Virus record (IMG/VR): IMGVR_UViG_2909288124_000003
Coordinates: 1 to 52,915 of that record
DNA length: 52,915 nucleotides
Source of the DNA: a virus
Lineage: Duplodnaviria > Heunggongvirae > Uroviricota > Caudoviricetes
Reading direction: 5' to 3' (one strand)
Under the pieces are notes generated by a model that saw only the letters and a list, made by a program, of their open reading frames with translations, ran no database searches and was not told the DNA's origin. Numbering within the stretch: the stretch's first letter is position 1; the number at the start of each line of letters is the position of its first letter. This document shows, piece by piece, positions 15,334 to 52,915 of this stretch. The position numbers and the translations under genes are program-made.

Positions 15334-15342
15334 AGCGCCTCC

Positions 15343-19667: not shown

Positions 19668-19687
19668 GTTTTGAATATCTGCTGGAT

Positions 19688-36468: not shown

Positions 36469-36637
36469 TCTGACCCTCTATTTCCCTGAATTTACGCTGG
36501 AACTGTTCGAGTGGACTGAAGCACTCATGCTCATATCCGTCGCGCAGGTATATAACCCGTTGAGTTTCTGGTTCCCACCGGATAACCCTGACAGGGACGC
36601 CGTAACTGTCTTTAAACCATCTGTTGAGTGCTCGCAT
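36425..36637 (-). CDS. Hypothetical small protein
   Basis: 70-aa ORF with protein-like composition between the YdaT-like and O-like genes; overlaps the O-like start by about 40 nt, so it is uncertain. Confidence 0.3.
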   Translation of the reverse strand: MRALNRWFKDSYGVPVRVIRWEPETQRVIYLRDGYEHECFSPLEQFQRKFREIEGQNEPVNDIAANSNKS

Positions 36638-36812
36638 TCGACCTTCTCCGCCTGGCCGTTGAAATCACCTACAACCCAATCAGCAAACTGGTAGCAGACA
36701 GGCTCAAAGCATCCGGATACCATTACCCCATACACGAACTGCACCGGACCTTTTCCACCCGGCATAGGTCGAGCAATAAGTTGCGACCTGCGGTACTGTG
36801 TTGTTACACTGT

Positions 36813-37376: not shown

Positions 37377-37407
37377 GTTGATTTCCCTCTGGTAGTTAAT
37401 AATCAAC

Positions 37408-37665
37408 TTAAAGTTGACTATTGTTGTTAGCGGAAGGTATGCCGTCATTTTTGTTCGGATAAATATCAGGTCGTAATTGATGGGGAGTTACTACCCATCC
37501 GCCCCATTGGCAGAGTTGAATAACTCTTTCAGAAGGTACTCGGTTCTTTGCAATCCAGTTCGCAACAGATTGAACTGATTGGAATTCAAACCGCCTTGAT
37601 ACCTCTGAAATCGACCCGATCGCCTTCACAGCTTTAGCTGTTACATTCTTGTGTTGAGATGACAT
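37408..37665 (-). CDS. Cro-like HTH regulator (YdaS family)
   Basis: 85 aa, start trimmed to MSSQHKNVTAKAV with RBS AGGAGA; divergent from the repressor gene. Confidence 0.65.
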   Translation of the reverse strand: MSSQHKNVTAKAVKAIGSISEVSRRFEFQSVQSVANWIAKNRVPSERVIQLCQWGGWVVTPHQLRPDIYPNKNDGIPSANNNSQL

Positions 37666-37770
37666 GTGTTCTCCTATGACTAAGCCTGCATCAATACTAC
37701 TCATAGTAGCAATTATTAGCAACTTAAAATAGAAATGACAACTATGCCTTGTGCGCTTAATCTTCTACTT
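37666..37770. promoter_or_regulatory. Immunity region (OR-like) between the Cro-like and cI-like genes, with palindrome CTACTCATAGTAG at 37697..37709
   Basis: Divergent intergenic region; the CTACT...AGTAG half-sites recur in the promoter at 38560..38589. Confidence 0.5.
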
Positions 37771-38454
37771 ATGGTGGAAAATGCTAAATACAAAGACTTT
37801 GCCGAAAGGCTAAACAGGTCTCTCCAAGAGCAATCTATTGGAGTTAAAGAATTGTCAGAGTTCAGTGGTGTCTCGTATGAGATGGCGCGGCGCTACACTC
37901 TTGGTACTGCAAAGCCGAGAGATGAGAAGATGATTCGAATTGCAGAAAGACTTGCCGTCTCACCGGCTTATCTTGATTATGGTGTGCCTGTTAATGGTGG
38001 CGACGCGCCAGCCAAAGGCACGGTCAGAATAGAGCAATTGGATGTTCATGCTTCAGCCGGTTCCGGATATATAAACCAACCATTCCCTACAATAGTGAGC
38101 TCAATAGAGATTCCAGAAGAGAGGATCTTCGAGTTGTTTGGTCGTAGAAGCCTTGATGGCATCGTCATGATAAATGTTGATGGCGATAGCATGATGCCCA
38201 CGCTTTGCCCAAAGGACCTGCTTTTCATAGACAGCAAGGTTGAACAATTCAGCGGCGACGGCGTTTATGTGTTCAATTTTGAAGACAGTACGTTCGTTAA
38301 ACGTTTGCAGAAGGTAAAAGGGCGCCGACTGGCAGTTCTTTCAGACAATGAACATTACCCGCCCTTCTTCATAGAGGAGCATGAAATGAATGAACTATAC
38401 ATATTCGGCAAGCTAATCAGATGCTTACCTCTAAAAATGATAGAGTTTGGCTAA
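37735..38454 (+). CDS. cI-like repressor (HTH plus S24 LexA-type autopeptidase domain)
   Basis: N-terminal HTH and C-terminal S24 domain with the GDSM serine and VKRL lysine motifs. The start may be at 37771 instead. Confidence 0.8.
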   Translation: MTTMPCALNLLLMVENAKYKDFAERLNRSLQEQSIGVKELSEFSGVSYEMARRYTLGTAKPRDEKMIRIAERLAVSPAYLDYGVPVNGGDAPAKGTVRIEQLDVHASAGSGYINQPFPTIVSSIEIPEERIFELFGRRSLDGIVMINVDGDSMMPTLCPKDLLFIDSKVEQFSGDGVYVFNFEDSTFVKRLQKVKGRRLAVLSDNEHYPPFFIEEHEMNELYIFGKLIRCLPLKMIEFG

Positions 38455-38473
38455 TAATTAATTCATCAAGAAA

Positions 38474-38494
38474 CCGGCGAAAGCCGGTTTTTTT
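38474..38494 (+). terminator. Rho-independent terminator after the repressor gene
   Basis: CCGGC-GAAA-GCCGG hairpin followed by TTTTTTT. Confidence 0.6.
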
Positions 38495-38559
38495 ACGCCT
38501 CAAATTCCTCACCTCATAACACTACACTACTAAAAATTTCATTTTTCTACTTTTTGTTG

Positions 38560-38589
38560 TTGCAATTATCTACTTAAAGTAGCTATAGT
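38560..38589 (+). promoter_or_regulatory. PL-like sigma70 promoter (TTGCAA, 18-bp spacer, TATAGT) with embedded operator palindrome CTACTTAAAGTAG
   Basis: Hexamers and palindrome read directly from the sequence. The palindrome at 38570..38582 shares half-sites with the one at 37697..37709. Confidence 0.5.
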
Positions 38590-38698
38590 CATTGCATCGA
38601 AAGCGAACAGGCAGGACGCCCACGAAGTAGCCGCCGGTGGCATATGAATAACCGGATGATTCGCTGACAGAAAACTTAGGTTGGGGGTAGAGGTTTAC

Positions 38699-39064
38699 AT
38701 GAATCATTTATTCACATGCTCATTTTGCGGAGCAACCGAACTGGGAGCGATAAAGATCGTCGCAAAAGGTGGTAAGGACGAACCTGCCATCTGTTCGGAA
38801 TGCGTAGTCACATGTGTAGAAAAAATGATCCTGACTAAAAAATCAGAGGCTGAAAAACCAACCTCTGATAACGAAATAATATCAGTCGATAAAAAACTAT
38901 TTAAAGAGCTTCTTCAGCTTGTCCTCAACCATCCTGATTTCGGAAGTAAGCTGGCTGCTGTTGACATTGATAGTAGCTCCACATCGACAAGTGAAACTTT
39001 TGTTCGACTTGAGCCAAGCGATTTTCTTCTTCGTCTTAGTGCCGCACTTAGGGCATGCGGGTAA
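38699..39064 (+). CDS. ClpX zinc-binding-domain-like protein (zinc ribbon) in the lambda N position
   Basis: LFTCSFCG...AICSECVVTC resembles the ClpX N-terminal zinc ribbon (CSFCG...ICDECV..C). ATG at 38699 with RBS GGGGTAGAGG. Confidence 0.5.
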   Translation: MNHLFTCSFCGATELGAIKIVAKGGKDEPAICSECVVTCVEKMILTKKSEAEKPTSDNEIISVDKKLFKELLQLVLNHPDFGSKLAAVDIDSSSTSTSETFVRLEPSDFLLRLSAALRACG

Positions 39065-39446
39065 CGTAATTTCCTGGTTATCAAAAGCGCCCATAAACAT
39101 CCCTCTTGGTTGTGTGAGAACACCAAGATACCACCACGCCTGATGTGGTTAAAAGCAGGCCAAAGCAATAACAAGTACTTCCCTGTTCTGGCGGCCCGGT
39201 GTTTTCCCGTGTATTTCCGGTAACCGCCAGCCTTTTTCAGGGCACAACGATGAGAACATTGACGAGCAAGGCATAAGTGCTGGTTCGATTCCAGACAGTC
39301 CCATTTAGTTGGGAGGGTTGGGCAGGGAAAAGGTTCGTTCGATTCGAACACCGGCAATGTTCTCTTCGTTGTGGTGAATTGCAGTCCATCGAGACAACCA
39401 GAAGACAAGCGCCTGGCGCCACAACTTGAATGCTGCGTGAAGTGTT

Positions 39447-39492
39447 GGCGGTACCAGTTACATCCCATCAATTAGCTGGTACCGCCCTTTTT
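39447..39492 (+). terminator. Strong rho-independent terminator inside the structured non-coding region
   Basis: GGCGGTACCAG...CTGGTACCGCC (11-bp stem) followed by CTTTTT. Confidence 0.55.
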
Positions 39493-39678
39493 ACACAACA
39501 GAAAAGGGCATCACCGGGCGACGGGCTCATAACCCAATCCACCCGGGCAAAAAGAAAGCGGTCTCTCAAGCCGCCGACCAATGCAGGTGCCCTTCTCTGT
39601 TGTGTATGGAGAAAGTTCGGCGGTGGCAGCCGCCTTAACTTCGTGTATGGACTAAAACCTTGTGCAGAGGAAAGTTAA

Positions 39679-40596
39679 ATGAAATTACCTAAGTTCCGTA
39701 ACGCAATCGTGTACCGCGCCACACTACCTAGCATTGAAGCTATCGAGGGGCATCTGCTTGAACTCCCCTACTCCGAGATTGGTGAAACTGAGTTTTCACG
39801 CGCCTCTTTTGTGCCAAACCCGATCACTGGCGAATTGGTCACCCCAATATCAGGTGGGTATGCCATCGTGATCCGCCATGATCAGAAAATCATTCCCCAG
39901 CATGTTGTTTTGAAGGAAGCCGCAGCACGGATCCAAAGAATCGAAGATATGTCCGGGAGTAAAATCAAACGTATCGAACGATTAGCAATTATCGACAGCG
40001 TCCGCGTTGACCTGTGTAAACGGGCATTTGTTAAATCAACGCTGATCCTTGCGTTGTACAGCACCAACGAAAAGCTATTAGTGGTCAATACGACCAATAA
40101 AAATATTGCCGGTATGGCTGTGGCTATGCTGGTGAAAGTTGTCGGTTCCGTTAAAACAGAAACAATCAACATTAGCGATATTAAGAACGGTTTAACTACG
40201 CGGTTGAAAAACTATATCAATGGCGTGGCCAATGCTTTTGAAGGGTTTACCGTCGGCAATTATATCCAGCTGTCCCGCCTTGCCGATCAAAATGAAGTTA
40301 TTCGCTACTCAGCTGAACACGACTCAATTCAAAGCGAGCTAGTTGATAGCCTTAATAGCGGCTTTACCGCTGATAAAATGGAGCTAGCAGGATGCGGTGT
40401 ATCGTTCATCCTCACCGAAAATTTCCATTTTTCGCGCATCAATACCCAAGCCCAAACATTCAACGATGAAGATGATAAAGCATTTCAATGGCGCCATCAG
40501 GCCGGGACGGATCTACTCCAATTCAGCAAAGTAGTAAACCTGATGTGTGATCTTCTTTCGTACAAAGAAGAACAGCCACAAAAACCCGCAGCCTAA
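39679..40596 (+). CDS. RdgC-like recombination-associated protein
   Basis: N-terminal F(K/R)N..VYR motif and overall pattern resemble E. coli RdgC; sits in the recombination module. Confidence 0.55.
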   Translation: MKLPKFRNAIVYRATLPSIEAIEGHLLELPYSEIGETEFSRASFVPNPITGELVTPISGGYAIVIRHDQKIIPQHVVLKEAAARIQRIEDMSGSKIKRIERLAIIDSVRVDLCKRAFVKSTLILALYSTNEKLLVVNTTNKNIAGMAVAMLVKVVGSVKTETINISDIKNGLTTRLKNYINGVANAFEGFTVGNYIQLSRLADQNEVIRYSAEHDSIQSELVDSLNSGFTADKMELAGCGVSFILTENFHFSRINTQAQTFNDEDDKAFQWRHQAGTDLLQFSKVVNLMCDLLSYKEEQPQKPAA

Positions 40597-40703
40597 TACC
40601 CCAGACCGTAATTAACCCATGTCATGGGTTGGGTTGCTGCACGCTAAATTTAGCAATTCATTAATTTAATAGCGCGGTGCAGCGCGCCAATATGGAGAAA
40701 ACC

Positions 40704-41243
40704 ATGAGCTACATTCAGACATTATCCGGCAAACATTTTAATTACCTCGATATCCAACAGGACGATATCGTGATCGAGGATATTGCTACCGCGTTGTCTC
40801 ATATCTGCCGTTTTGCAGGGCATCTTCCTGAGTTTTATAGCGTCGGCCAGCATAGCGTTTTAACCAGCCACCTCGTTCCGCAGGAGTTTGCATTAGAAGC
40901 ACTGCTTCATGATGCTGCTGAAGCCTACCTGCAGGACATCCCATCCCCGCTTAAGCACCTGCTTCCGGATTACCAGGTGATCGAAGCTCGCGTGGATGCA
41001 GCCATTCGGCAGAAGTTCGGCCTACCGACGGAACAACACCCAACTGTGAAATATGCCGATCTGGTGATGCTCGCCAGCGAACGCCGCGATTTTGAGGTTG
41101 ACGAAGGTTCCGTGTGGCCATGCCTCGAGGGAGTTGTCCCAACGGATTTATTCATTATCAATCCAGTTCGTCCTGGCCAGTCATACGGCATGTTCATCAA
41201 TCGCTTTAACGAATTGATGGAGCAGCGCCAATGCGCCGCATGA
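40704..41243 (+). CDS. HD-domain phosphohydrolase (YfbR-like)
   Basis: H...HD...D pattern (ALSHICRF, LLHDAAEAY). The start could be at 40692 or 40704. Confidence 0.6.
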   Translation: MSYIQTLSGKHFNYLDIQQDDIVIEDIATALSHICRFAGHLPEFYSVGQHSVLTSHLVPQEFALEALLHDAAEAYLQDIPSPLKHLLPDYQVIEARVDAAIRQKFGLPTEQHPTVKYADLVMLASERRDFEVDEGSVWPCLEGVVPTDLFIINPVRPGQSYGMFINRFNELMEQRQCAA

Positions 41244-41407
41244 AGGTAAAAGAACTCGTAGCGGAGGCGTTTGCCTCCGTTGCTGAATTGCCACCAAAGC
41301 ATGCACCGCTTATGCGCGAAGTCGCCACCAGACTGGACGCTACGTTCGCAGCATTAAAAGAGTCTCTGGTGCAACTGGAACAGGAACGTAAAGGTAAAAC
41401 GCCATGA
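41231..41407 (+). CDS. Small hypothetical protein (58 aa), not in the ORF track
   Basis: ORF MRRMKVKELVAEAF... whose start overlaps the upstream stop and whose stop overlaps the next ATG. Confidence 0.3.
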   Translation: MRRMKVKELVAEAFASVAELPPKHAPLMREVATRLDATFAALKESLVQLEQERKGKTP

Positions 41408-41658
41408 CCGTATTTGAATATCTCCAGGCTCACCCCAACGCCACCAGCGCTGAAATAGCTAAGGGTTTAAACAAAAAGACAGCTTCGATCGCTGGTGCAT
41501 TATCGCAACTCTATGGCACCGGCCGGATCGTGAAGTCTGGTGTTCGCAAGGGCATTCCAACATACCGTGTTAACGATATGCCGTTTGGGTGTAGTAACAG
41601 CTTAACCATGATGTTTAACCAGCTATTAAACACAGCCAGAAAGGGAACTGCACAATGA
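41404..41658 (+). CDS. Small winged-helix-like protein
   Basis: 84-aa ORF in the early-left operon. Confidence 0.4.
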   Translation: MTVFEYLQAHPNATSAEIAKGLNKKTASIAGALSQLYGTGRIVKSGVRKGIPTYRVNDMPFGCSNSLTMMFNQLLNTARKGTAQ

Positions 41659-41999
41659 GTAAATCTCTGAACGCACGTTGCATCCGTCGCTGGACCGTCG
41701 AATTTAAAGGCCGCTGCGACTCGAAACATAGCCCGTATTGGCGCAAGCGCGACCTGCGCGGTTACATCCGTGAAGCGGCACTAACTACAGCTTATTGCAT
41801 GGTTGAGCGTATGGCTGAGGACAATGCCAGGGTTGCTTTTTTCGGGTACCTGTACGGTTTGTCGCCTGAATTCTCAGCCTGGTACGATGAACGCCGTGAG
41901 TCATATCTGAAAGAAGCCCGGCGCACACTCAATAAGAACGCCACCAATGATGAGGTTGACGAGGAAATACAGAACGAGCTGGAGGCCTGGAATGACTAA
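41655..41999 (+). CDS. Hypothetical protein
   Basis: 114-aa ORF, translationally coupled to its neighbours. Confidence 0.4.
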   Translation: MSKSLNARCIRRWTVEFKGRCDSKHSPYWRKRDLRGYIREAALTTAYCMVERMAEDNARVAFFGYLYGLSPEFSAWYDERRESYLKEARRTLNKNATNDEVDEEIQNELEAWND

Positions 42000-42324
42000 C
42001 TCACTCAACAAACAGGATTTAGACGACGCACTGTACTTTGACCTTTTTGAAGGTGATTTCGGTACGCCATGCGATACCGAACTATCGAACAAAATTGTTA
42101 CCTCTCGCGGTGAATATAAATGTCACATTTGCGCTGGCGAAATTTTAAAGGGTGAAATCCATCGTAGTACGACGTGGAAATTCGACGGCGAACTCATGTC
42201 CTATCGGTGTTGCAACGAGTGCTGTGTGGCAATGGTTAAAAGCGTCAATTGTGAATATGAAGAAGAAGACCCGATAGAAGCGCGTTACGCGCTGGGCCAT
42301 CTACGCAGAGGATGGGCAGCATGA
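41992..42324 (+). CDS. Hypothetical Cys-rich (zinc-finger-like) protein
   Basis: CHICAG...CCNECC motif; start trimmed to MTNSLNKQ. Confidence 0.4.
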   Translation: MTNSLNKQDLDDALYFDLFEGDFGTPCDTELSNKIVTSRGEYKCHICAGEILKGEIHRSTTWKFDGELMSYRCCNECCVAMVKSVNCEYEEEDPIEARYALGHLRRGWAA

Positions 42325-43004
42325 CCACTAACAACCACCCGGCGCACGGTCCTGTATCACTCGAGCGCCTGCACCAGATACGCGAAATACTCAGCAAAGC
42401 AGCAGCACAAAGCGACGGCGGTAATCTCGGCTACGCAATGGCTGATGCTGTGAAGGTGATTGAAGGGGCAATTGCGGCGTTTGGTGCTGAGCCTGCACCA
42501 GTAGATATTGAAATGCTGGCCACTGCACTGAGAAACGCTCCGTTAGCGCCGTCAGATAGCCAGGGCAAGCCGAGAGCGCCGGTAGCGCCGGAGAATTGCG
42601 TAACAGCAGAACACCGTCGCGTTATTGAAATGCTGCTCAATGTTTGCGGGGCCGCATTCGAACTCGCAGATGATAGCTGTCAGCAAGATGTTGATGGCGA
42701 AGAGTGCCACGTTGTTCCAGACGACGCATTTCAGAAGCTAAGTGATGCGCTGGACGAAATCGAAAACACTCTCCCGACAGAAGATGTCGACAGGCCAGAC
42801 GTATTTCTTGCCTGGTCGGCAATGCCAAGGGCAGCGCTGAAATCTATTCTCCAGGCTGGCAACTCTCCGGTAACTCCGGATGGTTCAACTTGTAAATACT
42901 GCGGTGGCACAGGTTATTTCCGCTGGCAGCAATCAGAAAATATGTGTCCTTGCCCATATGTGGGATGTGACCAGCCAACAGCACCTAATCAAGAGAATGT
43001 ATAA
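42312..43004 (+). CDS. Hypothetical protein with C-terminal Cys cluster
   Basis: 230-aa acidic ORF ending in CKYCGGTGYF...CPCPYVGC. Confidence 0.4.
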   Translation: MGSMTTNNHPAHGPVSLERLHQIREILSKAAAQSDGGNLGYAMADAVKVIEGAIAAFGAEPAPVDIEMLATALRNAPLAPSDSQGKPRAPVAPENCVTAEHRRVIEMLLNVCGAAFELADDSCQQDVDGEECHVVPDDAFQKLSDALDEIENTLPTEDVDRPDVFLAWSAMPRAALKSILQAGNSPVTPDGSTCKYCGGTGYFRWQQSENMCPCPYVGCDQPTAPNQENV

Positions 43005-43575
43005 CGTGAACAATTTAATGATCGATCTTGAAACTATGGGCAAAAAGCCGAATGCCCCTATCGTCTCCATTGGTGCCGTGTTATTCGATCCGCAAAGTGG
43101 TGAACTGGGTCAGGAGTTTTACACCGCTGTTAATCTTGAAAGCGCTATGGAGCAGGGAGCGGTGCCGGACGGTGACACTATTCTGTGGTGGTTAAGACAA
43201 AGCTCAGAAGCACGATCAGCAATCTGTGTTGATGATGCGATGCCGATATCATCTGCCCTATCTGAACTGAGCCATTTCATTAATCGGCATTCTGATAACC
43301 CTAAATATTTAAAAGTTTGGGGCAATGGAGCTACTTTCGACAACGTTATATTGCGCGGCGCATATGAGCGTGCCGGCCAGGTTTGCCCGTGGCAATTTTG
43401 GAATGATCACGACGTCAGAACCATCGTCACATTAGGCAGAGTTGTAGGTTTCGATCCTAAGCGTGATATGCCATTTGATGGGGTTGCACATAACGCACTG
43501 GCTGATGCCCGCCACCAGGCGAAATATGTTTCAGCGATTTGGCAGAAACTAATCCCAACCACCAGCAACAACTAA
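42997..43575 (+). CDS. 3'-5' exonuclease-like protein (DnaQ-like fold)
   Basis: MIDLETMG...SIGAV...H(N/D)..FD motifs; start trimmed to MYNVNN. Confidence 0.5.
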   Translation: MYNVNNLMIDLETMGKKPNAPIVSIGAVLFDPQSGELGQEFYTAVNLESAMEQGAVPDGDTILWWLRQSSEARSAICVDDAMPISSALSELSHFINRHSDNPKYLKVWGNGATFDNVILRGAYERAGQVCPWQFWNDHDVRTIVTLGRVVGFDPKRDMPFDGVAHNALADARHQAKYVSAIWQKLIPTTSNN

Positions 43576-43615
43576 AATTTTCCCCGGGTGCAGCCGGGAT
43601 AATGGAGAAATAACT

Positions 43616-43852
43616 ATGAGCAATATTTTCCAGTTAGCTCCCAACGATTGGGTTTGTGAAAGTGTTCTGATCGCGGTGACCGGGCTCAAGCCCGGTACCA
43701 TCCTCCGGGCCAGAAAAGAATGCTGGATGATTGGGAGGGAGTATATCCACGTATCGCCTGACGGAAATCCTAAACCTTCCAGTGAGTGCATGTATAACAG
43801 AAAGGCTGTAGATGCCTGGGTCGCTTCAATGAAAAGCAAGCAGCCAGGGTGA
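43616..43852 (+). CDS. xis: Excisionase (Xis)
   Basis: 78-aa ORF immediately upstream of the integrase. Confidence 0.6.
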   Translation: MSNIFQLAPNDWVCESVLIAVTGLKPGTILRARKECWMIGREYIHVSPDGNPKPSSECMYNRKAVDAWVASMKSKQPG

Positions 43853-43910
43853 TTTGATGCCATGAAAAAGGTAAGCTCGTATCGCTCTTGGGCGTCTGGA
43901 GGTAACACCA

Positions 43911-45224
43911 ATGGATAAAGTCACATATCCAACAGGCGTCGAAAACCACGGTGGCACATTACGCATCTGGTTTAATTTTAAAGGTAAGCGTGTCAGGGAA
44001 AGTCTCGGTGTCCCTGACACCGCTAAGAACAGAAAGATAGCCGGGGAACTGCGGACATCAGTATGTTTTGCCATCCGCACAGGAACCTTTGATTATGCAA
44101 CCCAGTTTCCTGACTCCCCTAACCTCAAGGCTTTTGGTGTAAGTAAAAAAGACATTACAGTGAAAGAACTTGAAGAAAAATGGCTGGATCTGAAACGGAT
44201 GGAAATCTGCGCGAACGCATTCAATCGCTATGAATCTGTCGCAAGGAATATGGTGCCGAGGATCGGAGGTAATCGCCTGGTGTCAGCAGTAACCAAAGAG
44301 GAATTGCTGTATCTCAGGAAAGATTTGCTAACTGGTTATCAGAGTCCGACGAAAAATAAAGCCCCGGCAAAAGGGCGAAGCGTTGTTACTGTGAACTATT
44401 ACATGACGACAATGGCCGGAATGTTTCAGTTTGCTGCGGATCACGGTTACTTAGAGGTGAACCCATTCGAGGGAATTAAACCTCTGAAAAAAGCCAGGGC
44501 AGAACCAGATCCTCTGTCTCGTGATGAATTTATTCGCCTGATAGATGCATGCCGGCATCAGCAGACGAAAAACCTGTGGTCATTAGCAGTGTACACAGGA
44601 ATGCGTCACGGGGAACTGGTCTCCCTGGCCTGGGAAGATATCGACCTGAAGGCGGGAACAATTACCGTCAGGCGTAATTATACGAAACTTGGTGAGTTCA
44701 CTCTACCGAAAACCGAGGCAAGCACAGATCGAGTGGTGCATCTTATCCAGCCCGCAATCAGCATCCTGAAAAATCAGGCTGAAATGACAAGGCTGGGCAG
44801 GCAATATCACATTGAAGTGCAGTTACGTGAGTACGGTCGTTCGGTGACCCATGAGTGTACATTCGTCTTTAACCCGCATGTGGTCAGACGCAGTAAGCAG
44901 GTCGGATTTATCTACCGGGTCGATTCAGTAGGCGACTCATGGGAAGCGGCACTAAAGCGCGCGGGGATCAGACACAGAAAGGCGTACCAGTCACGACATA
45001 CCTATGCGTGCTGGTCATTATCTGCTGGTGCAAACCCGAGTTTTATTGCCAGTCAGATGGGGCATGCGAGCGCGCAGATGGTGTTCAATGTTTACGGTGC
45101 ATGGATGGCTGACAGCAGCGCAGAGCAGATCGCAATGCTGAATCAGAAGCTGGCAGATTTTGCCCCATTGATGCCCCATAGCCACGAGAGCAGTACTGGA
45201 GGATTATTAAAATCAGTAAGTTAA
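43911..45224 (+). CDS. int: Tyrosine integrase
   Basis: 437 aa with C-terminal catalytic R...HxxR...Y region; ends 18 bp before the attR core; arm-type repeats lie in its 3' end. Confidence 0.85.
   Translation: MDKVTYPTGVENHGGTLRIWFNFKGKRVRESLGVPDTAKNRKIAGELRTSVCFAIRTGTFDYATQFPDSPNLKAFGVSKKDITVKELEEKWLDLKRMEICANAFNRYESVARNMVPRIGGNRLVSAVTKEELLYLRKDLLTGYQSPTKNKAPAKGRSVVTVNYYMTTMAGMFQFAADHGYLEVNPFEGIKPLKKARAEPDPLSRDEFIRLIDACRHQQTKNLWSLAVYTGMRHGELVSLAWEDIDLKAGTITVRRNYTKLGEFTLPKTEASTDRVVHLIQPAISILKNQAEMTRLGRQYHIEVQLREYGRSVTHECTFVFNPHVVRRSKQVGFIYRVDSVGDSWEAALKRAGIRHRKAYQSRHTYACWSLSAGANPSFIASQMGHASAQMVFNVYGAWMADSSAEQIAMLNQKLADFAPLMPHSHESSTGGLLKSVS
45161..45178. promoter_or_regulatory. Integrase arm-type sites (two TGCCCCA copies) within the int 3' end
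   Basis: ttTGCCCCAttgaTGCCCCAta, same heptamer as the four copies near attL. Confidence 0.4.
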
Positions 45225-45242
45225 CCCCTAACGCCCGTCATG

Positions 45243-45256
45243 TTAACTGCGTGGAG
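45243..45256. repeat. attR core: 14-bp direct repeat TTAACTGCGTGGAG
   Basis: Identical to 86..99. Host yecE sequence resumes in frame immediately after. Confidence 0.6.
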
Positions 45257-45652
45257 GGCAACACCACGCTTTACGCCCTGCCGAAACCCGAGGTTGTCCT
45301 GCGCTGGCGTGAGCAGACCACAGATGACTTCCGCTTCTGTTTTAAGTTTCCGGCGACCATTTCGCATCAGGCAGCATTACGGCATTGCGATGATTTAGTG
45401 ACTGAATTTTTGACCCGCATGTCACCGTTGGCTCCGCGCATTGGGCAATACTGGCTGCAACTGCCTGCCACATTCGGCCCACGGGAGCTGCCTGCGCTTT
45501 GGAATTTTCTCGATTCTCTCCCTGGCGAATTTAATTATGGTGTGGAAGTCCGCCATCCACAGTTTTTCGCCAAAGGGGAAGAGGAACAAACGCTTAATCG
45601 CGGTTTACATCAGCGCGGCGTTAATCGGGTGATTTTTATTAGACACGTTTAA
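45251..45652 (+). pseudogene. yecE: Host yecE (DUF72) internal fragment, truncated again at about 45640 by element 2
   Basis: GNTTLYALPKPEVVLRWREQTTDDFRFCFKFPATISHQ... continues the protein from 1..99 and then diverges (NRVIFIRHV stop) where the AT-rich second element begins. Confidence 0.7.
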
Positions 45653-45702
45653 ATACACCACCTAAAGCGATACAATCTAGGGCATCAGTTTTGAGGTGAA
45701 CA

Positions 45703-47226
45703 ATGAAACGTGCCATTTCTTACATCAGGTTTTCATCTGAGAAGCAATCCCGAGGTGATTCACTACGCAGACAGTCTAAGATGGTTAATGACTGGCTTAA
45801 GGCTCATCCTGAGTACTACCTTGACCAAGATTTATCCTTCCGTGATTTGGGGGTGAGTGGGTTCACTGGTAAGCACTTGAAAGGTGGCTTAGGTGACTTC
45901 TTAACCGCTATCGAGAAAGGGCTTGTTAAAGCTGGTGATACACTACTAATCGAGAGTTTAGACCGTCTGTCACGTCAAGATGTAGACCAAGCAAGCGAGC
46001 TACTCAGAAACATTCTTCGCTCTGGTGTAGATGTAGTCACCCTGTCCGATGGTGAACATTACACAAAAGAGAGTTTAAAAGACCCGTTAGCTCTGATTAA
46101 AAGCATTTTGATAATGCAACGAGCGCATGAGGAATCATTACGTAAGGCTGAGCGTATCCAAGCTGCATGGGATGCAAAGAAAGAAGCTGCTAAAGCTGGT
46201 ATCAAGATTTCTAGGCGTTGTCCTGCATGGCTTAAGCTTAATGATGACCGTAAAAGCTTCTCTGTGATACCTGAGAAAGTGGAGACTGTGAAGAGGTGCT
46301 TTCAGCTACGGTTAGAGGGTAAGTCTATCTGGGAGATTGTCAGAACTCTTAATGCTGAAGGTCACCGGTCGATGAACCAATACAAGCCGGGTAAGTTTGG
46401 TCAAACCTCAGTGCAAGACCTTTTGAAGAATCGCTCTGTAATTGGATACTTTACCCCGAAAGGCTGTGAAGAGATATCTGGTTATTATCCTGCAATTATA
46501 GATGAAACAACATTCTACAAAGTTCAACAACTATCACATTCTCGTTATGGAAAGAGGTCTGTTTCAGATAAACCATTGAGTGTGAATCTCTTTAAAGGTG
46601 TTATCCGTTGTTCTGAATGTGGTCATGCTCTGATTATCACAGGCTTTAGCGATACAAGAAACGGGATTTATCGTTGTCCTCTTCGTAATGAAAACCGTTG
46701 CAATGCCAAAGGGCTGTCACGTAAGCAAACCGATGGTACATTACTTGCCCTGCTATCTCGTCTTGACCGATTTGATAGCGATATGACGAATGTCATTGAT
46801 GCATTGAAGCTACACCGTGAACACATCTCAAACAATATTGAAAAGCTGGTACAGCTATCACTTGAAATTGAAGATTTGTCAGCTATTACCATCAAACTAA
46901 AGCAGTTAAAAGGTGAGCTATCACAGGTTGATGCGGATATCGAGAAGGAGACACAACGCCTTAAATCTATTGATGTGGGGTGTTTGTCTGATTGTGACTT
47001 GACTACAAAGGCGGGAAGGATTGAAGCACAACTGATAATCAAAAGTGCTGTTAAAGAGGTCGTTTTAAATACTGCTAAACGTCGCTGTAAAGTAACTTTT
47101 CACAATAGTAAGTCAATCACCCTACCAATAACAGAAAACCCCTCAGAGGACGTTACAGAGGCTATACAGTCGCTTTCTGAAGTCACTGAGAGGGGGTTGA
47201 TAGATGTTGATGAGGTTATCATATAG
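45703..47226 (+). CDS. Large serine recombinase (serine integrase) of a second integrated element
   Basis: N-terminal resolvase-type catalytic region (ISYIRFSSEKQ), recombinase and zinc-ribbon region (CSECGH...CPLRNENRC), coiled-coil C-terminus; sits at the junction with yecE. Confidence 0.8.
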   Translation: MKRAISYIRFSSEKQSRGDSLRRQSKMVNDWLKAHPEYYLDQDLSFRDLGVSGFTGKHLKGGLGDFLTAIEKGLVKAGDTLLIESLDRLSRQDVDQASELLRNILRSGVDVVTLSDGEHYTKESLKDPLALIKSILIMQRAHEESLRKAERIQAAWDAKKEAAKAGIKISRRCPAWLKLNDDRKSFSVIPEKVETVKRCFQLRLEGKSIWEIVRTLNAEGHRSMNQYKPGKFGQTSVQDLLKNRSVIGYFTPKGCEEISGYYPAIIDETTFYKVQQLSHSRYGKRSVSDKPLSVNLFKGVIRCSECGHALIITGFSDTRNGIYRCPLRNENRCNAKGLSRKQTDGTLLALLSRLDRFDSDMTNVIDALKLHREHISNNIEKLVQLSLEIEDLSAITIKLKQLKGELSQVDADIEKETQRLKSIDVGCLSDCDLTTKAGRIEAQLIIKSAVKEVVLNTAKRRCKVTFHNSKSITLPITENPSEDVTEAIQSLSEVTERGLIDVDEVII

Positions 47227-47240
47227 TTGAGATTCTATCG

Positions 47241-48014
47241 TCAGTAGCGCTTGTGAGGATTCACAGACAGCCTCTTCAAAACATTACCTGTACCAGCATT
47301 ATTAAGCACCTTTGCAGCTTGCTCATTAGCGGCATCTGAGAAGGTGCTTTTTCCATTCTCAACTTTGACACTTCTACCACAATTGATACGGGCTTGAAGT
47401 TGCTCATTAGAAAGTTCACTCGTAGAGCGATTATATAGCTCCTGACACAGCAACATACCATTACCTAAACTTGTTGTAGTGTTCCCTGTATTCTTTTTAC
47501 TGGTAGCACCACCATCATTTGTGGTAGCCGTTTTGCCAGTAGCAGCCGAAATATCCGTTTGACCTACGATTGAACGAAACTCTACACCTTGGAAGGTCAT
47601 CTGAATACGAAGACCATTAGCAATGGTATGCTCTTTACTCGCTTTAAACTGAGTAATGATACTATCAGTGATAGATATTCCATCTTTACAAACAATAGTG
47701 ATGATTTGCTTCTGGTCTCGCCATTGTTCAACCGTAGAAATAAAGGTCTCTACAAGTTGCCCCTGTCTGGTTAATAGAACTGAACCCGTCGAATCAACCA
47801 CTACAACACCGCTAATAGAGATGGTCTTAGGTGCTCTCTGAACATTATCAGTGATAGTTTGCCCCGATTGCATAGCCTGAGTTGTCACCATCATCGGTGA
47901 GTCATAGTCCATCTGTTCAGTAGCTGTTAAGGCAAGAAAAGATTCTACATTATCTCTAAGGTGAAAATAGATACCATCTTTACCTGAATATCTAATTTGC
48001 TTTGTGTCAAACAT
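47241..48014 (-). CDS. Hypothetical protein (possible tail component) of element 2
   Basis: 257-aa ORF downstream of the tape-measure gene in an AT-rich region. Confidence 0.4.
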
Positions 48015-48033
48015 TGTTGTTATTCCTATTCTG

Positions 48034-48098
48034 TTAAGCGTGAGCTACGTGAAATCTAATTTTTGATGTTGGTATCTGTTCAGAAGATTTCACGTAGC
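48034..48098. repeat. Conserved intergenic palindromic element, copy A
   Basis: TTAAGCGTGAGCTACGTGAAATC and GATTTCACGTAGC (13-bp perfect inverted repeat) flank a 29-bp spacer, about 20 bp upstream of the RBS of the 48014..47241 gene. Confidence 0.6.
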
Positions 48099-48187
48099 AT
48101 TCGACTATTCATAGTTGAATCGTCATACTAGATAAAGATTAATAGATTGCCATGTGTGGCAATAAATATTAGTAGTTCTAACATTGT

Positions 48188-50269
48188 TTATTCCTCTGGG
48201 TAAGCTGAGCTAATCAAGGTATCTTCCTGCATACGATTAATATGCGATGTGGTTCTTTCATCAATAACCTTTCCATCAAGTACCGTCTGAGTTGTGATAT
48301 TGATTGTCTGAGGCTGAATATTTACTGACGGCTTGATAACCTTTAAATCTTGTGTGAATGTTTCCACTCGACCTTTCAGATTATTTAATGCTTCATGTGA
48401 AATCTGTGGAACATCTTTTGATTTGCCATGAACCATAGCCCATAAAACAGCGGCTAAAGAGTTCATGTCACCAGTCAATGCTTGGTCTGTGGGTTCCACC
48501 TTTGACCTTACAACTTTGTCAATTGGATTATCTGACTTACTCATCTGACGTTCATAGAACGGTTTAACAATGGAGTTAATCACATCAGTTGCCATACCGA
48601 CAATCATTACTTTGGTAATTGCATCAGCTACAGATAATTTTCCTTTACCACCTTCAACACTACCAGTACCAGAACGTGAATTGATTCTTCCCGCTGCTGT
48701 ATTTGCGACATTTCCAAGCGTGGAAATAGCCCTAATTAAGTTCCAGATACCACCTACAGCACCAATACCAGACCTTACAGCGACAATACCAGCAAGTCCC
48801 TTTAATGCACTTAACAGGCCATTTGCGATACCATCAGCTACAGCTTTTTGAGTGTCATTTAATTCTCTGTAAGCAAGGGTCACTCTGTCAAAGAATCCCT
48901 GCACTCGGTAGCTAATCGTGGTTAAATCATCAATACCGTTTGACATGCTTTTCATCAGGTCGCCAAAATGTTCACCAAGACTTTTAGATTGACCACCTAG
49001 TGAATTAAGTAAATTAGTCAGTGACCTTGTAAAATCTACCAGACCTTCCTGTGAACCATCGAACATTAAGGCCAGATTATTATTCCATGAATTACTTAAG
49101 CGGCCTAACTGCGTCTGAGTAGAGTTAATAATCTTTTCCCATCCACCAGCTTTATCAATCATCCTTCCCATTTCAGCGGATACTTTAGGAAGAACATCTT
49201 TAGAAAGAACCTTACCGTCTTTCATGGCCTTGTCTAATTCTTCCGTAGTCATCCCAAGACTTCTGGCAAATAACTGGAAAGCACCTGCCATTCTGTCCCC
49301 TAACTGACCGCGTAATTCTTCAGCCTGAATCTTTCCTTTAGATGCCATCTGCTCGAAAGCTTTTAAAATCCCGTTAATTTCATCGGTGCTTAGCCCCATT
49401 AATCTGGATGTACCAATCACATTACTAAATAGGGATTCTTTCTGGCCTGCATCCATATCACCAGCACCAGCGGAAAACTTAGCAAAACTGCTTAATGTTT
49501 CAATCTGGTCTACACCACTACTATCAGCAAGATTCTTAACAAATTCTGTAGCTCGTTTAGCACCTTCATCACCTAAAACGAATTGTGCCGCTCGTTGTGA
49601 TGCTTCTTTTTTCAGACCAACTTCCATAACCTTCCTATAAGCTTCTAAGGCTGTCTGAAAACTATAAATGGCTGTACCTGCTTTGATTGCACTTGTAGCT
49701 AATACATCTAAACCATTTGAAGCATTTTCACTGTGATTGTTTTTGCTGGTGGTCTTGTTAAACTTAGAAAGTGTTTCACGTAGATTTTGATTTAACTTTG
49801 CTAACTCACGATTAAAAGCTTCGTTCCCAAGTGTCTTGGATTTACTAGCTAGCCCATAAAACTGGCTCTTAATGTATTTCTCGACAATTGGGTTAAGACC
49901 TTTCAGCTTGGTCATATTAGCTGAATAAGCTGCTGTGATTGCTCTGTTGCCGCTAATTCGTGGCTGTCTTGATTGTTTTGGAGGATTAACAGTGTCATTA
50001 AATCTGGTGGCAAACTGAAATGCTTTTGTGCTTTTTGCTCTCTGTTCAATCTTGTCAAAGGTCTTATTAAACTTCCTTTCAAGTTGCCCTAAAGAGCTTG
50101 TCAGATTGCTGTCAAGTTGCTTGGTATCGACCTTAAACGCCCTATTCAAATTACGTTCAATTCTTTGTGCTGACTGCAAAGCTGCCTTTTCAACTCTTTG
50201 CAGACCTTTAATAACGTTCTCGCTGAAGCCTAGTTCAACGATAAACGAATCAACTGTGAATTTGCTCAT
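48188..50269 (-). CDS. Tail tape measure protein of element 2
   Basis: 693-aa helical protein with the conserved tape-measure block (KGKIQAEELRGQLGDRMAGAFQLFARSLGMTTEELDKAMKDGKV). Confidence 0.7.
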   Translation of the reverse strand: MSKFTVDSFIVELGFSENVIKGLQRVEKAALQSAQRIERNLNRAFKVDTKQLDSNLTSSLGQLERKFNKTFDKIEQRAKSTKAFQFATRFNDTVNPPKQSRQPRISGNRAITAAYSANMTKLKGLNPIVEKYIKSQFYGLASKSKTLGNEAFNRELAKLNQNLRETLSKFNKTTSKNNHSENASNGLDVLATSAIKAGTAIYSFQTALEAYRKVMEVGLKKEASQRAAQFVLGDEGAKRATEFVKNLADSSGVDQIETLSSFAKFSAGAGDMDAGQKESLFSNVIGTSRLMGLSTDEINGILKAFEQMASKGKIQAEELRGQLGDRMAGAFQLFARSLGMTTEELDKAMKDGKVLSKDVLPKVSAEMGRMIDKAGGWEKIINSTQTQLGRLSNSWNNNLALMFDGSQEGLVDFTRSLTNLLNSLGGQSKSLGEHFGDLMKSMSNGIDDLTTISYRVQGFFDRVTLAYRELNDTQKAVADGIANGLLSALKGLAGIVAVRSGIGAVGGIWNLIRAISTLGNVANTAAGRINSRSGTGSVEGGKGKLSVADAITKVMIVGMATDVINSIVKPFYERQMSKSDNPIDKVVRSKVEPTDQALTGDMNSLAAVLWAMVHGKSKDVPQISHEALNNLKGRVETFTQDLKVIKPSVNIQPQTINITTQTVLDGKVIDERTTSHINRMQEDTLISSAYPEE

Positions 50270-50287
50270 TGTTCATATTTCACCTCT

Positions 50288-50352
50288 TTAAGCGTGAGCT
50301 ACGTAAAAAATAATTTTTGGTGGGTATATCTGTTCAGAAGATTTCACGTAGC
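50288..50352. repeat. Conserved intergenic palindromic element, copy B
   Basis: Same element as 48034..48098 (shared TTAAGCGTGAGCTACGT and TCTGTTCAGAAGATTTCACGTAGC), about 20 bp upstream of the tape-measure RBS. Confidence 0.6.
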
Positions 50353-50436
50353 ACACATACAAAAAAGGGAGAAACTACCGAATAATATCGATAATCTCTC
50401 CCCGTGTTATAGATTCGATTAGAAGCTAATCTCAAA

Positions 50437-50652
50437 TTAATGCCTGACAAGATAATGTAGTTCCGTTTCACCTATGATTTGAGCATCAGAAGGAATACGG
50501 TCGATACACCATTTTGGAATCTTGCGTGTTTTTGGTTTGCGTGAGGTGATAATTTGATGTTTGGTTTTAATTCTTAAGGCTGGCTTAGTTTGTAACTTTA
50601 AGTTTTCACAAACAGACTTAATAGTTTCATAGCGTTCTGTTAAATCAATCAT
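50437..50652 (-). CDS. Hypothetical small basic protein
   Basis: 71-aa ORF in element 2. Confidence 0.35.
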   Translation of the reverse strand: MIDLTERYETIKSVCENLKLQTKPALRIKTKHQIITSRKPKTRKIPKWCIDRIPSDAQIIGETELHYLVRH

Positions 50653-50674
50653 TCATCACCTCACATATGCATAA

Positions 50675-51379
50675 TTAAACAGCCTTGCTAAATTCTCGTG
50701 GAACACTCAGAAAATCATTGAAGCTGATAATCTGTGCCAACTCTTGACGGTACTCCTTAGCCAGCGCTTGATGGTCACTAATCAGCTTAGCCAGTCTTGA
50801 TTTCAGCAAATTAATCTCATTTTCTCTTGCTTTCATCAGTTTCTCTTTGGCAATTTCTTCAAGCTCAGCTTGTGATTTATCAGCAACAATTAGAGACAGT
50901 CGATGTGGTGCTCTGACAGCTCTTTCTGTACGAACAACTCTTTGACCTTCTGGTAAATCTGCAATCACTTTACCAATCTCTACAGGGTCATACCCCCAAC
51001 CGTCACGGTCTAGTCGAGAGAAATAAGCATAAGAATTGGTTTGAAGCTCCATCAAAATAGCCATTTCGTCAATTTCGTCTTCAAGCTTGGACTGAATTTT
51101 CTCGTAAACACTTCTCATTGCTTCTTGAGAGTCTCGAAGGTCTTTGAAATATTTGCGTTGCAGCTTCAGTTTCAAATCAAGCTCACATTCCTCATTCATC
51201 GAAAAATCAATTTCAACTCTTGGAATCTCGATTGGTTCTGGTGGAATATATGGACCTTTATTTACTTCGTGCGATTCCCGCCAAGCTCTATCAAAAGATT
51301 CACGCAAAGTTAATTCGTGAATATCAAGTGCACTTGGTCTGTTCTCAACAATCATTTCGTGTTCATTACGAATGGACAT
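50675..51379 (-). CDS. Hypothetical protein (coiled-coil C-terminus)
   Basis: 234-aa ORF in element 2. Confidence 0.4.
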   Translation of the reverse strand: MSIRNEHEMIVENRPSALDIHELTLRESFDRAWRESHEVNKGPYIPPEPIEIPRVEIDFSMNEECELDLKLKLQRKYFKDLRDSQEAMRSVYEKIQSKLEDEIDEMAILMELQTNSYAYFSRLDRDGWGYDPVEIGKVIADLPEGQRVVRTERAVRAPHRLSLIVADKSQAELEEIAKEKLMKARENEINLLKSRLAKLISDHQALAKEYRQELAQIISFNDFLSVPREFSKAV

Positions 51380-51934
51380 TAATATTTTCCTCTTCTAAGA
51401 TAATTTATGTTTCAGTTTTTAAAAAGCACACCTGACAGCCTATCTAAACTTAGAAGAGACTTAAAAGGCGGTTTGCCAAGTATGCTTTTTAAAAGCTGAA
51501 AAAAGCCCTAAACATAATCTGTGAAGGGCTTTGGAGGTTTGCTTTATAACGTTAACGAAGTTTCAGGAAAAACTTTCTTTAAGAGTTCTGCTTAAAAGCT
51601 CTTAAAGAAAGCCCTAACTCATGATTAGGGCAAAGCTGTAAGGATTCAATAACGAATGAACAAAGACTTTTTGAGATAGCCTCTCAGACTAAACTGAAAG
51701 GCCATGACGAAAAGCATTGCACCTTTCCAACTCAGAATATAGTTATCATCGATGTAGAACGATTAATAGTTTAATTCAAGGAGAATTGCTCTCCTCATAT
51801 ATACAATTATGTCATGCTCAAGGTTATTTGTCAACAGCTTTTAACAGATTGGTAACATCAATTTTTATTTACCGTGTTGCCCACCCAGCAACCAACAAAT
51901 AAACCCAAAGCTGTCCAAGCAATTATTAAGCCCA

Positions 51935-52258
51935 TTAATGCACCACCTTCGAATCCGTAACCAAAACATTGTCAGCGTACAAAATTACTATAGCCGCCTT
52001 GAGATATTTTTCAGGGCTAATGCTGTATTTGTTCGTTTGCTCGATAACCAATCTTTTCATGTTTGAGTCGCTAACGGGAAACATAAAACGTGGTTCACCA
52101 GTTTCAATTTCCTGAATAAAATCTTCAATTGCTTCTGAGTTTTCAGCCATCAGCTTTAACAGCCTGTCAAAGTCAATGCTAATACCTGCATCAGTGAAGC
52201 TTTGCACCATCATAGCAGTGTCGGTATCAATAAAAATTTGTAATGGGTAACTGTTCAT
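51935..52258 (-). CDS. Hypothetical acidic protein
   Basis: 107-aa ORF in element 2. Confidence 0.35.
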   Translation of the reverse strand: MNSYPLQIFIDTDTAMMVQSFTDAGISIDFDRLLKLMAENSEAIEDFIQEIETGEPRFMFPVSDSNMKRLVIEQTNKYSISPEKYLKAAIVILYADNVLVTDSKVVH

Positions 52259-52415
52259 TTCTTAAAATCTCCTTTTTCACCAGACCTCCTCAATCGCTCT
52301 GTAACGAGCTAAACAGTCTTTTTCAGGGGTAGCCTGTACAGTGGTATTACCCACCCTAAAATAAGATAGTTTTTTGCGTTAGAATGCGATTGAGAGCGTC
52401 TGAGAAGCTGTTTTT

Positions 52416-52703
52416 CTAATTTCTCTTAAAGTCTCGGACTTGCATAAGATTTTTTGGTCTGGTATCGGCTCTGTTACCATTTCGATGGATAATTTGCTTG
52501 TTGGATTGATAGCCATGATAAAGAAACCAGACAACATATTTCACGTAGAAAGTGTATCGGCCTATATTAAATGTTTTGTTGCCGTAGTCGTCGGTATTTA
52601 TCGTGACTGACTCTCCATCAGACCAGCACAGGGAATCACTGGATTCATCATAGATAAGGTGTTCTGTAAAATATCGCCTAACATCTTCATGCCAAGGTTT
52701 CAT
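52416..52703 (-). CDS. HNH endonuclease-like protein
   Basis: IIHRNGNRADTRPKNL resembles the HNH H-N-N motif; ATGA overlap with the upstream ORF. Confidence 0.45.
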   Translation of the reverse strand: MKPWHEDVRRYFTEHLIYDESSDSLCWSDGESVTINTDDYGNKTFNIGRYTFYVKYVVWFLYHGYQSNKQIIHRNGNRADTRPKNLMQVRDFKRN

Positions 52704-52915
52704 AAAACCTCCTCACCCCAATAACCTAATTCAATCTTGTGACGCTCAAACCATTCTGGCTTGACTGCTGCTTTCAGTGTTTCATTTGGGCCAATGGCTT
52801 TAATGAAAATATCTTTTGAGTTATGGATGTCACCGAATCCGTTTCCTTCAATCAGGAGGTCGGAGATGTAGCGAATCATTTTATCTGTGTGGTATTCAAA
52901 GGTAACGCATAGCAT
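52700..52915 (-). CDS. Hypothetical protein (possibly 5'-truncated by the window edge)
   Basis: ORF begins with ATG exactly at the window end and is translationally coupled to the HNH-like gene. Confidence 0.3.
   Translation of the reverse strand: MLCVTFEYHTDKMIRYISDLLIEGNGFGDIHNSKDIFIKAIGPNETLKAAVKPEWFERHKIELGYWGEEVL

Follow-up and report, generated by a model that had tools for sequence, protein, structure and literature searches.

The 52,915-nt stretch of Caudoviricetes DNA analysed here (IMG/VR record IMGVR_UViG_2909288124_000003, positions 1 to 52,915; hereafter the window) contains an island with a 507-aa large serine recombinase at its border and, further inside, an HNH endonuclease and several ORFans. 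Within this island two consecutive tail genes, one for a tape-measure protein (TMP) and one for a Dit-like tail or baseplate protein, are each preceded by one copy of a 66-nt module, which we refer to as the cassette. Exactly two copies of this module exist in the 52.9-kb window, and in both an inverted repeat flanks a replaceable A/T-rich spacer. The genes around the two copies all lie on the minus strand, so that the module is read TGCTACGTGAAATC...ACGTAGCTCACGCTTAA.

In the direction of transcription the cassettes are preceded by a 71-aa ORFan, here called F4 (50437..50652, minus strand). F4 is followed by a strong intrinsic terminator with a 16-bp stem and a T-run (50366..50403, minus strand), by cassette B (50288..50353, minus strand) and by the TMP gene (48188..50269, minus strand; 693 aa; Pfam TMP_3, phrog_4036). 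After the TMP stop codon there is a small hairpin, TTGCCACACATGGCAA, followed by a T-rich stretch (48147..48162, minus strand) just ahead of cassette A (48034..48099, minus strand). The Dit-like gene comes next (47241..48014, minus strand; 257 aa; Pfam Dit_like 3e-17, phrog_3721 1.6e-128). The large serine recombinase gene (45703..47226, plus strand), identified by Pfam and PHROGs profile searches, is convergent with it.

Anatomy and conservation of the cassette

On the coding strand the module consists of TGCTACGTGAAATC, the spacer, (G/T)ATTT(C/T)ACGTAGC and finally TCACGCTTAA. Cassette A (TGCTACGTGAAATCTTCTGAACAGATACCAACATCAAAAATTAGATTTCACGTAGCTCACGCTTAA) fills part of the gap between the TMP stop codon and the Dit-like gene, and cassette B (TGCTACGTGAAATCTTCTGAACAGATATACCCACCAAAAATTATTTTTTACGTAGCTCACGCTTAA) part of the gap that separates the TMP gene from the F4 terminator. 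A preliminary description of this DNA had reported two strings shared by the two intergenic copies, and both turned out to be exact and confined to them: the 24-mer TCTGTTCAGAAGATTTCACGTAGC occurs in the window solely at 48075-48098 and 50329-50352, the 17-mer TTAAGCGTGAGCTACGT solely at 48034-48050 and 50288-50304, and none of either is expected by chance. In addition, a covariance model built from 38 cassette variants and used to scan the whole window matched only copy A (84.6 bits) and copy B (87.4 bits).

The perfect 13-bp inverted repeat which had been noted in copy A is confirmed. Its 5' arm GCTACGTGAAATC, containing the conserved core TACGTGAA, lies at 48086..48098 and its 3' arm GATTTCACGTAGC at 48044..48056 (both minus strand), with 29 nt between the arms and the tail TCACGCTTAA following at 48034-48043. 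Copy B has the same 5' arm GCTACGTGAAATC (50340..50352, minus strand) and an imperfect 3' arm in the ATTTTTTACGTAGC region (50298..50310, minus strand), with seven Watson-Crick pairs, one G-U and three A-U, again followed by the tail TCACGCTTAA (50288-50297). The copies had been said to end about 20 bp before the ribosome-binding site (RBS) of the downstream gene, a distance which has to be corrected: they end 0-5 nt before the RBS and 18-19 nt before the start codon. The Dit-like ATG is found 19 nt past the end of cassette A and the TMP ATG 18 nt past the end of cassette B, which is abutted by the RBS AGAGGTG.

The arm 10-mer CTACGTGAAA is present in the window in four sense and two antisense copies. 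Two of the sense copies are exact extra ones within coding sequences (CDSs), at 49774..49783 (minus strand) in the TMP gene and at 52539..52548 (minus strand) in the HNH endonuclease gene. The latter corresponds to the partial match that had been placed near 52535; the match itself is exact (ATTTCACGTAG, 52538-52548), but it sits within the endonuclease CDS. Two extra coding-strand 10-mers in a 5.7-kb stretch are unlikely to arise by chance (about 1e-4 by estimate). The intragenic copies are poorly conserved, as the site within TMP reads CTTCGTGAAA in 7 of 33 relatives and that within the HNH gene differs in 5 of 16.

Conservation was assessed in an alignment of 38 distinct 66-nt variants and in a second sample of 13 islands, which were fetched via the neighbouring F4 protein and thus blind to the cassette. 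The inverted core comprises 8 bp only, TACGTGAA and TT(C/T)ACGTA, and towards both ends of the stem, outer and inner, pairing is often lost. The distance from CTACGTGA to ACGTAG is 39 nt in essentially all copies; exceptions of +1, +27 and -14 nt occur beside the left arm. The spacer sequences themselves fall into at least four classes, and class iv (L158, L160, L161) resembles the other classes at the level of shuffled sequences, in either orientation. T42, A43 and T47 are invariant in the 38 variants (classes i-iii), in columns that were not forced by the search patterns. Classes i-iii have a TAnnnT hexamer after the A-run, which class iv lacks at the shared position. The 3' tail GCTCACGCTTAA is common without being universal, as the cassette-blind sample also contains GCTCACCCTTAA, GCGCATCACTAA and CAACGTGCGTAA.

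The cassettes are better conserved than the genes around them. In a comparison with island L011, cassette B is 100% identical, compared with 67% for F4 and 63% for the 5' end of TMP, and cassette A is 88% identical, compared with 53% for the 3' end of TMP and 68% for the Dit-like gene.

Distribution, optional presence and exchange between islands

About 150 copies of the cassette were gathered from scans of viral and metagenomic contigs and from loci fetched by protein similarity. They comprise 94 copies at the TMP/Dit junction, 48 at the F4/TMP junction, seven that are cut by contig ends and one that belongs to a longer relative, element C. At the two junctions (142 of the 150 copies) the orientation relative to the genes is constant, with the tail beside the RBS. 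Among E. coli genomes the cassette was found in 434 genomes at 545 places, all of them chromosomal, with a median of one per genome; none of the E. coli matches listed overlaps an annotated feature. A BLAST search of both cassettes against 50,697 phage records gave no meaningful match, and the late intergenic regions of the Felixounavirus phage EC106 are unlike the cassette. The motif search in the window and its relatives that had been proposed as a check yielded two junctions plus element C, and none in the helper-type phage. The cassette is private to one island family, unlike dispersed repeats.

Element C is found in full islands and lies outside the window (L063:10444-10560, with a homologous element in L001 at about 29170-29300). 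It is non-coding, is located between convergent genes about 0.5 kb from an HNH-AP2 endonuclease gene, and carries arms of about 21 nt at both ends, TTAAnCGnnnnCTACGTGAAA ... TTTCACGTAGAACACG(C/A)TTA(A/G). Its interior of 83-98 nt or more is unrelated to the cassette spacer, and one variant has a cassette-like interior in the opposite orientation; the covariance model scores the element weakly, at 30 bits. The comparison shows that the common unit consists of arms plus tail without the spacer, and it gives a hint that the cassette may derive from a small palindromic element.

The presence of the cassette is optional. In the cassette-blind sample site A was filled in all 13 islands and site B in 9 of them, and site B was empty in 6 of the 14 loci first compared. 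In B sites that have no cassette the RBS follows directly after the terminator, sometimes with a tail-like GAACACTTAA or GAACGCTTAA, and the F4-side terminator itself is kept in all relatives, irrespective of whether the cassette is present. In L031 and L032 nothing occupies site A, and the junction reads uninterrupted GAGGAATAAACAATGTTTGAC. In the window a direct repeat of 15-17 bp of this junction, spanning the TMP stop and the Dit RBS and ATG, brackets an insert of about 170 bp that holds cassette A. Its first copy, GAGGAATAAACAATGTT (48180..48196, minus strand), covers the TMP stop and a relic RBS and ATG, and its second, AGGAATAACAACAATGTT (48010..48027, minus strand), supplies the Dit-like gene with its working RBS and ATG; the relic RBS and ATG and an 18-codon open reading frame (ORF) remain past the TMP stop. 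In phage EC106 the TMP and Dit homologues are adjacent with a 1-nt overlap, leaving no intergenic DNA and no cassette. The uninterrupted junction of L031 and L032, together with its direct repetition around the insert, indicates that the tight, phage-like junction is ancestral and that the cassette-bearing spacers are secondary.

Other small hairpin modules, for example GATAGTCTTCTATC and GGATGGCTTTCCATCC, have been gained or lost in the F4/TMP and TMP/Dit spacers (L006, L011, L013, L166, L167), and long-leader Dit variants (e.g. L009:4712-4791) have an 80-nt leader with AAAGGCTT...AAGCCTTT. Both junctions are hot spots for small palindromic indels.

These observations bear on the proposal that the cassettes are functionless relics of a small palindromic insertion, resembling a miniature inverted-repeat transposable element (MITE), of which element C would be the full-length form and which would be homogenised by recombination between islands, the instability of palindromes accounting for its loss from some of them. 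The terminal inverted repeats (13 bp in A and B, about 21 bp in element C), the clean presence or absence at both sites, the tail-like remnants at empty B sites and the turnover of other hairpin modules in the same spacers are all consistent with such an origin. However, there are no copies beyond the two junctions and element C, the E. coli copies are all chromosomal and mostly single, no target-site duplication flanks the cassette itself and a transposase is absent. The identity far above that of the flanking genes, the invariant orientation and the maintenance of spacer length despite replaced sequence also speak against it, and we regard this explanation as improbable.

The cassettes also mark places of genetic exchange. 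Every combination of left and right spacer types was found, an identical variant can occupy site A in one island and site B in another, and the breakpoints of similarity between islands lie at cassette A and within TMP. TMP is hypervariable, the proteins of different islands being 42-95% identical in amino acids. The first 430-650 nt of the gene are linked to the upstream region, and the remainder is swapped as a block up to cassette A, a pattern that suggests diversifying selection or allele swapping. The better conservation of the cassettes, their mixed spacers, the sharing of variants between sites A and B and the position of the breakpoints together indicate that the cassettes bracket TMP and act as, or at least mark, crossover points.

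Such breakpoints could also be explained if the cassette were the site of an island nuclease or recombinase, of the HNH, HNH-AP2 or small resolvase type, whose breaks would stimulate the exchange of TMP modules. Full islands do have genes for HNH_3 and HNH-AP2 endonucleases and in many cases for a 183-aa resolvase, element C lies close to the HNH-AP2 gene, the mosaic breakpoints coincide with cassette A, and it is known from phages and satellites that nuclease genes lie at the limits of genetic exchange (PMC10448857). However, the nuclease genes do not adjoin cassettes A or B, no inverted or excised spacer forms were seen, and the spacer has neither dyad symmetry nor a central core, unlike the sites of serine recombinases; with 39 bp it is also too short for inversion. 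This makes a nuclease or recombinase site very unlikely. An invertible switch was likewise rejected, the class iv spacer not being the reverse complement of that of any other class, and so was an att, invertase or attC site in general, given an asymmetric and replaceable spacer, the lack of an inverted form and the absence of IntI. As for integrons, GCTTAAC fits the attC consensus RYYYAAC only as a degenerate 7-mer.

Possible functions of the cassette

Both copies lie directly before an RBS and come after a stop codon or, in the case of cassette B always, after the strong terminator. This placement, together with the fixed orientation, the conservation above that of the flanks and an arm spacing that is kept across unrelated spacers, argues for a directional, selected cis-element that a sequence-specific factor would read at the DNA level. 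The tentative explanation that we favour, without giving it an even chance, is that of an internal promoter flanked by operators, or a regulator-binding cassette, which doubles as a recombination linker. According to this proposal the module would have been placed ahead of TMP and ahead of the Dit-like gene, at junctions which the phage keeps tightly coupled. The two inverted arms, with their core TACGTGAA / TTYACGTA, are kept 39 bp apart around the A/T-rich spacer and would be bound by a sequence-specific protein from the island or from the helper phage; a third CACG is found in the tail, and the arm 10-mer CTACGTGAAA and the 21-mer TTTCACGTAGCTCACGCTTAA are candidate targets. Most spacers would provide a weak sigma-70-type -10 element (TAnnnT) that is poor in -35 sequence. 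On binding, each tail gene would be switched on or off irrespective of the terminator or stop codon that precedes the cassette. Felix O1 is transcribed by the host RNA polymerase; it lacks a polymerase of its own, no sigma factor is known from it, and the choice between secondary promoters and read-through past its terminators was left open by the authors (PMC3185647). It would therefore be plausible for a satellite to restart transcription at host-type, factor-dependent promoters. We infer the binding of a protein to the arms, the promoter activity and the nature of the regulator from this arrangement. Finally, since the 66 bp are far more conserved than the surrounding genes, the cassette would also serve as a homologous-recombination linker for the exchange of TMP and Dit alleles.

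A scan with a threshold of 9 of 12 hexamer positions found no sigma-70 promoter in either cassette. The best matches reach 8/12 with an 18-nt gap: in cassette A (48053..48082, minus strand) TGAACA at 48082-48077 and TAGATT at 48058-48053, and in cassette B (50307..50336, minus strand) TGAACA at 50336-50331 and TATTTT at 50312-50307. The TAnnnT hexamer has a fixed position in classes i-iii, with TGn absent and the -35 weak or absent; in classes ii and iii the -35 matches at only 2 of 6 positions and class iv has no -10 either. The suggestion that the copies are late promoters is thus not established.

Several further observations speak, like these promoter scans, against the explanation we favour. 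The cassette is dispensable at both sites. The variants with +27 and -14 nt at the left arm indicate that the spacing is not absolute, and some of the apparent conservation is due to the search itself, as the columns AAAAA, ACGTA and CACGCTTAA were forced by the search patterns. Element C has the cassette arms between convergent genes, without a downstream gene to be regulated. The whole genome of the Felixounavirus phage EC106 showed no k-mer or motif enrichment and no match to the covariance model. On the side of the regulator, neither a DNA-binding protein for the arms nor a repressor was identified among the small island ORFs, for which Pfam, PHROGs, NCBIfam and PADLOC returned nothing, although one 92-aa island protein has a sub-threshold DndE-like match; the AlphaFold model of F4 (pLDDT 78) has no fold match in the PDB. 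The preliminary suggestion of gene-by-gene regulatory sites survives in part: the copies are directional, conserved and adjacent to the RBS, but they occur at two junctions only and can be missing from each.

Comparison by eye with the sites of sigma-32, sigma-28, sigma-E, sigma-54, CRP, LexA, TyrR and IHF and with the DnaA box, lambda boxA and parS revealed partial resemblances only: ACGTGAAA equals a parS half-site, CGCTTAA resembles lambda boxA and ATATCCACA resembles a DnaA box. None of these is consistent across the variants.

The opposing arms invite an explanation at the level of RNA, according to which they would pair in a polycistronic mRNA and the resulting stem-loop just 5' of each RBS would shield the transcript, direct its processing or tune its translation, which would make TMP and Dit separate units of expression, much like REP, ERIC and Correia hairpins or phage RNase III sites. 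The cassettes are indeed sense-oriented inside a co-directional string of genes, the arms are kept whereas the sequence of the loop is replaceable, and a 27-nt loop insertion (itself a small hairpin) as well as a 14-nt deletion are tolerated. Copy A folds with -21.5 kcal/mol (z = -6.8), and the pair 9/49 is G-C, G-U or A-U but never A-C; core transitions to G-U outnumber those to A-C by six to three, a difference that is not significant. However, the stability is uneven among variants (-7 to -21 kcal/mol, z from -0.4 to -6.8), and covariation in the alignment stays at the level of shuffled controls, 114 and 118 of 500 shuffles reaching the observed values. Five stem pairs never vary, and the outer and inner ones are often broken. 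What is conserved is thus a stem of 8 bp around a loop of 35-39 nt, too short for a classical RNase III site (about 20 bp), and the constant loop length and the partly conserved 3' tail would be unexpected for a simple hairpin. Rfam gave no match at E<=1 in the window from 36000 to 52915 and one chance-level match in a related whole island. An RNA processing hairpin, as had also been suggested, lacks the support of covariation, and we consider an RNA element rather less probable than the regulatory cassette, though it is the main and a serious rival, given the tolerated loop insertions and deletions and the free spacer sequence.

The preliminary view that the copies are not terminators holds. 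Neither cassette was called in a terminator scan, there is no T-run (U-tract) after either arm on either strand, and the strong terminator upstream of B is a separate element.

A coding function was considered as well, in the form of a micro-ORF of 22 codons, TGC TAC GTG ... GCT TAA, whose stop would be the TAA of the tail. The frame is open in classes i-iii and in the +27 variant, and many B copies have an ATG or GTG in frame ahead of them. However, there is no Shine-Dalgarno sequence, the ATG at site A is in another frame (5-6 codons), the variants of 67 nt and of -14 nt are frameshifted, and in class iv codon 11 of the frame is a TAA stop. The micro-ORF was rejected on these grounds, its probability being negligible.

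The setting of the preferred regulatory cassette in an island with phage tail genes permits a more far-reaching and more speculative version. In this version the cassettes would act as switches in a satellite of Felix O1-type phages that is PLE-like and so far undescribed. A factor encoded by the satellite or the helper would bind the arms, or an RNA from element C would pair with them; it would sense helper infection and free the satellite's TMP and Dit proteins to remodel or poison the helper tail. The 66-bp linkers would in addition let satellites swap hypervariable TMP alleles in an arms race with their helpers. As a whole this scenario is unlikely.

The island and its relation to known systems

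A relative of the island with 90% identity (L001:18650-30550) represents the whole element, about 12 kb in length and inserted in yecE. Full islands of this kind contain the HNH_3 and HNH-AP2 endonucleases and often the resolvase mentioned above, and most of their remaining genes are ORFans. Relatives are present in 486 of 5,426 complete E. coli genomes (about 9%); some are located at other sites, e.g. wrbA, and the island also exists in E. albertii and Citrobacter. Homologues of F4 occur in Escherichia, Citrobacter and Shigella islands only. Both TMP and the Dit-like protein are Felixounavirus homologues, the Dit-like gene having 74-76% nucleotide identity to Felixounavirus (Felix O1-like) phages. 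The island is a putative satellite of Felix O1-type myoviruses, and it looks like an undescribed satellite or a defence island against Felix O1-like phages. In the literature we found no paper that describes the island or the cassette, and these satellite-like islands seem to form a family that has not been studied so far.

In the window the island directly adjoins a lambdoid prophage that is also located at yecE, so that one attachment gene is shared in tandem. The early region of this prophage (38000-45652) includes rdgC, an exonuclease, an Ea22-like gene, an excisionase and a tyrosine integrase (43911-45224). Positions 4000-21000 have a G+C content of 0.53-0.57, above the approximately 0.39-0.51 elsewhere in the window. 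Within the island a 555-nt non-coding leader (51380-51934, minus strand) in the gap between a 107-aa and a 234-aa gene is kept in relatives. At 51834-51806 it has a sigma-70 promoter close to the consensus, TTGACA-N17-CATAAT with TG; it also contains hairpins that resemble terminators, e.g. at 51631-51611, and has no Rfam match; it may be a regulatory RNA or an attenuator.

As an element, the island resembles putative satellites reported earlier. Barth, Nguyen and Seed (2023) described putative E. coli satellites that encode a TMP and a baseplate hub, with an integrase beside baseplate and TMP genes (PMC10448857). With these and with the PLEs of Vibrio cholerae the present island shares its context, though not the cassette: integrative islands of 10-14 kb, an integrase beside baseplate or TMP genes, few morphogenesis genes, inferred parasitism of lytic myoviruses and, in some cases, serine recombinases. 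However, the published family belongs to a distinct lineage: its representative O104:H4 (L157) differs in gene content, carries a tyrosine integrase and lacks the cassette, whereas the present island combines TMP and Dit genes of the Felixounavirus type with a large serine recombinase. Taken by itself the cassette is of moderate interest; the putative Felixounavirus satellite island with its hypervariable TMP is more notable. If the cassettes are helper-responsive, they would offer a direct handle on how a widespread island activates hijacked tail genes; if they are mere relics, the finding is ordinary.

For the cassette itself, small elements of bacterial chromosomes offer a first comparison. 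Correia elements of Neisseria and the ERIC/IRU and REP elements of enterobacteria are bounded by inverted repeats and have tens to hundreds of chromosomal copies, the Correia elements carrying TA target duplications. Like the cassette they are small pieces of transcribed intergenic DNA with a polymorphic presence, and they can provide promoters or, once transcribed, form hairpins that change the stability of the mRNA. Of the features of MITE or Correia elements the cassette has the terminal inverted repeats, whereas it lacks a duplication at its ends and is restricted to two fixed junctions and element C in one family instead of many unrelated loci.

Operators of phages provide a second comparison. 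The stoperators of cluster A mycobacteriophages number 20-30 or more single sites per genome and are bound by a known repressor. In a similar way the short, asymmetric CTACGTGAAA lies near gene boundaries in the orientation of transcription, and one repressor could silence several genes. However, the cassette consists of inverted pairs, and its 4-6 sites include the poorly conserved intragenic ones.

The closest analogues by behaviour are the PeSLs (promoter-early stem-loops) of T4-type phages, which combine a strong sigma-70 promoter with a transcription-terminating stem-loop (Arbiol et al. 2010, PMC2839356; Comeau et al. 2014, PMC4122927). They too are short, conserved intergenic repeats beside variable genes, more conserved than their flanks, in which a terminator is paired with a restart signal and which act as points of homologous exchange ("modular shuffling"). 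The cassette shares with them the conserved repeats at exchange boundaries and fails in both defining features: its best promoter match is 8/12, its 29-39-nt loop is not followed by a U-tract, and the terminator near B is separate. In addition, there are two copies per element instead of dozens, and the host is a chromosomal island and not a T4-type phage. If our proposal is true, the cassette would be a second clear case, outside the T4-type phages, of regulatory linkers that drive the modular exchange of a hypervariable structural gene. Taken together, it is best described as a modest variant of the known intergenic regulatory and recombination cassettes.

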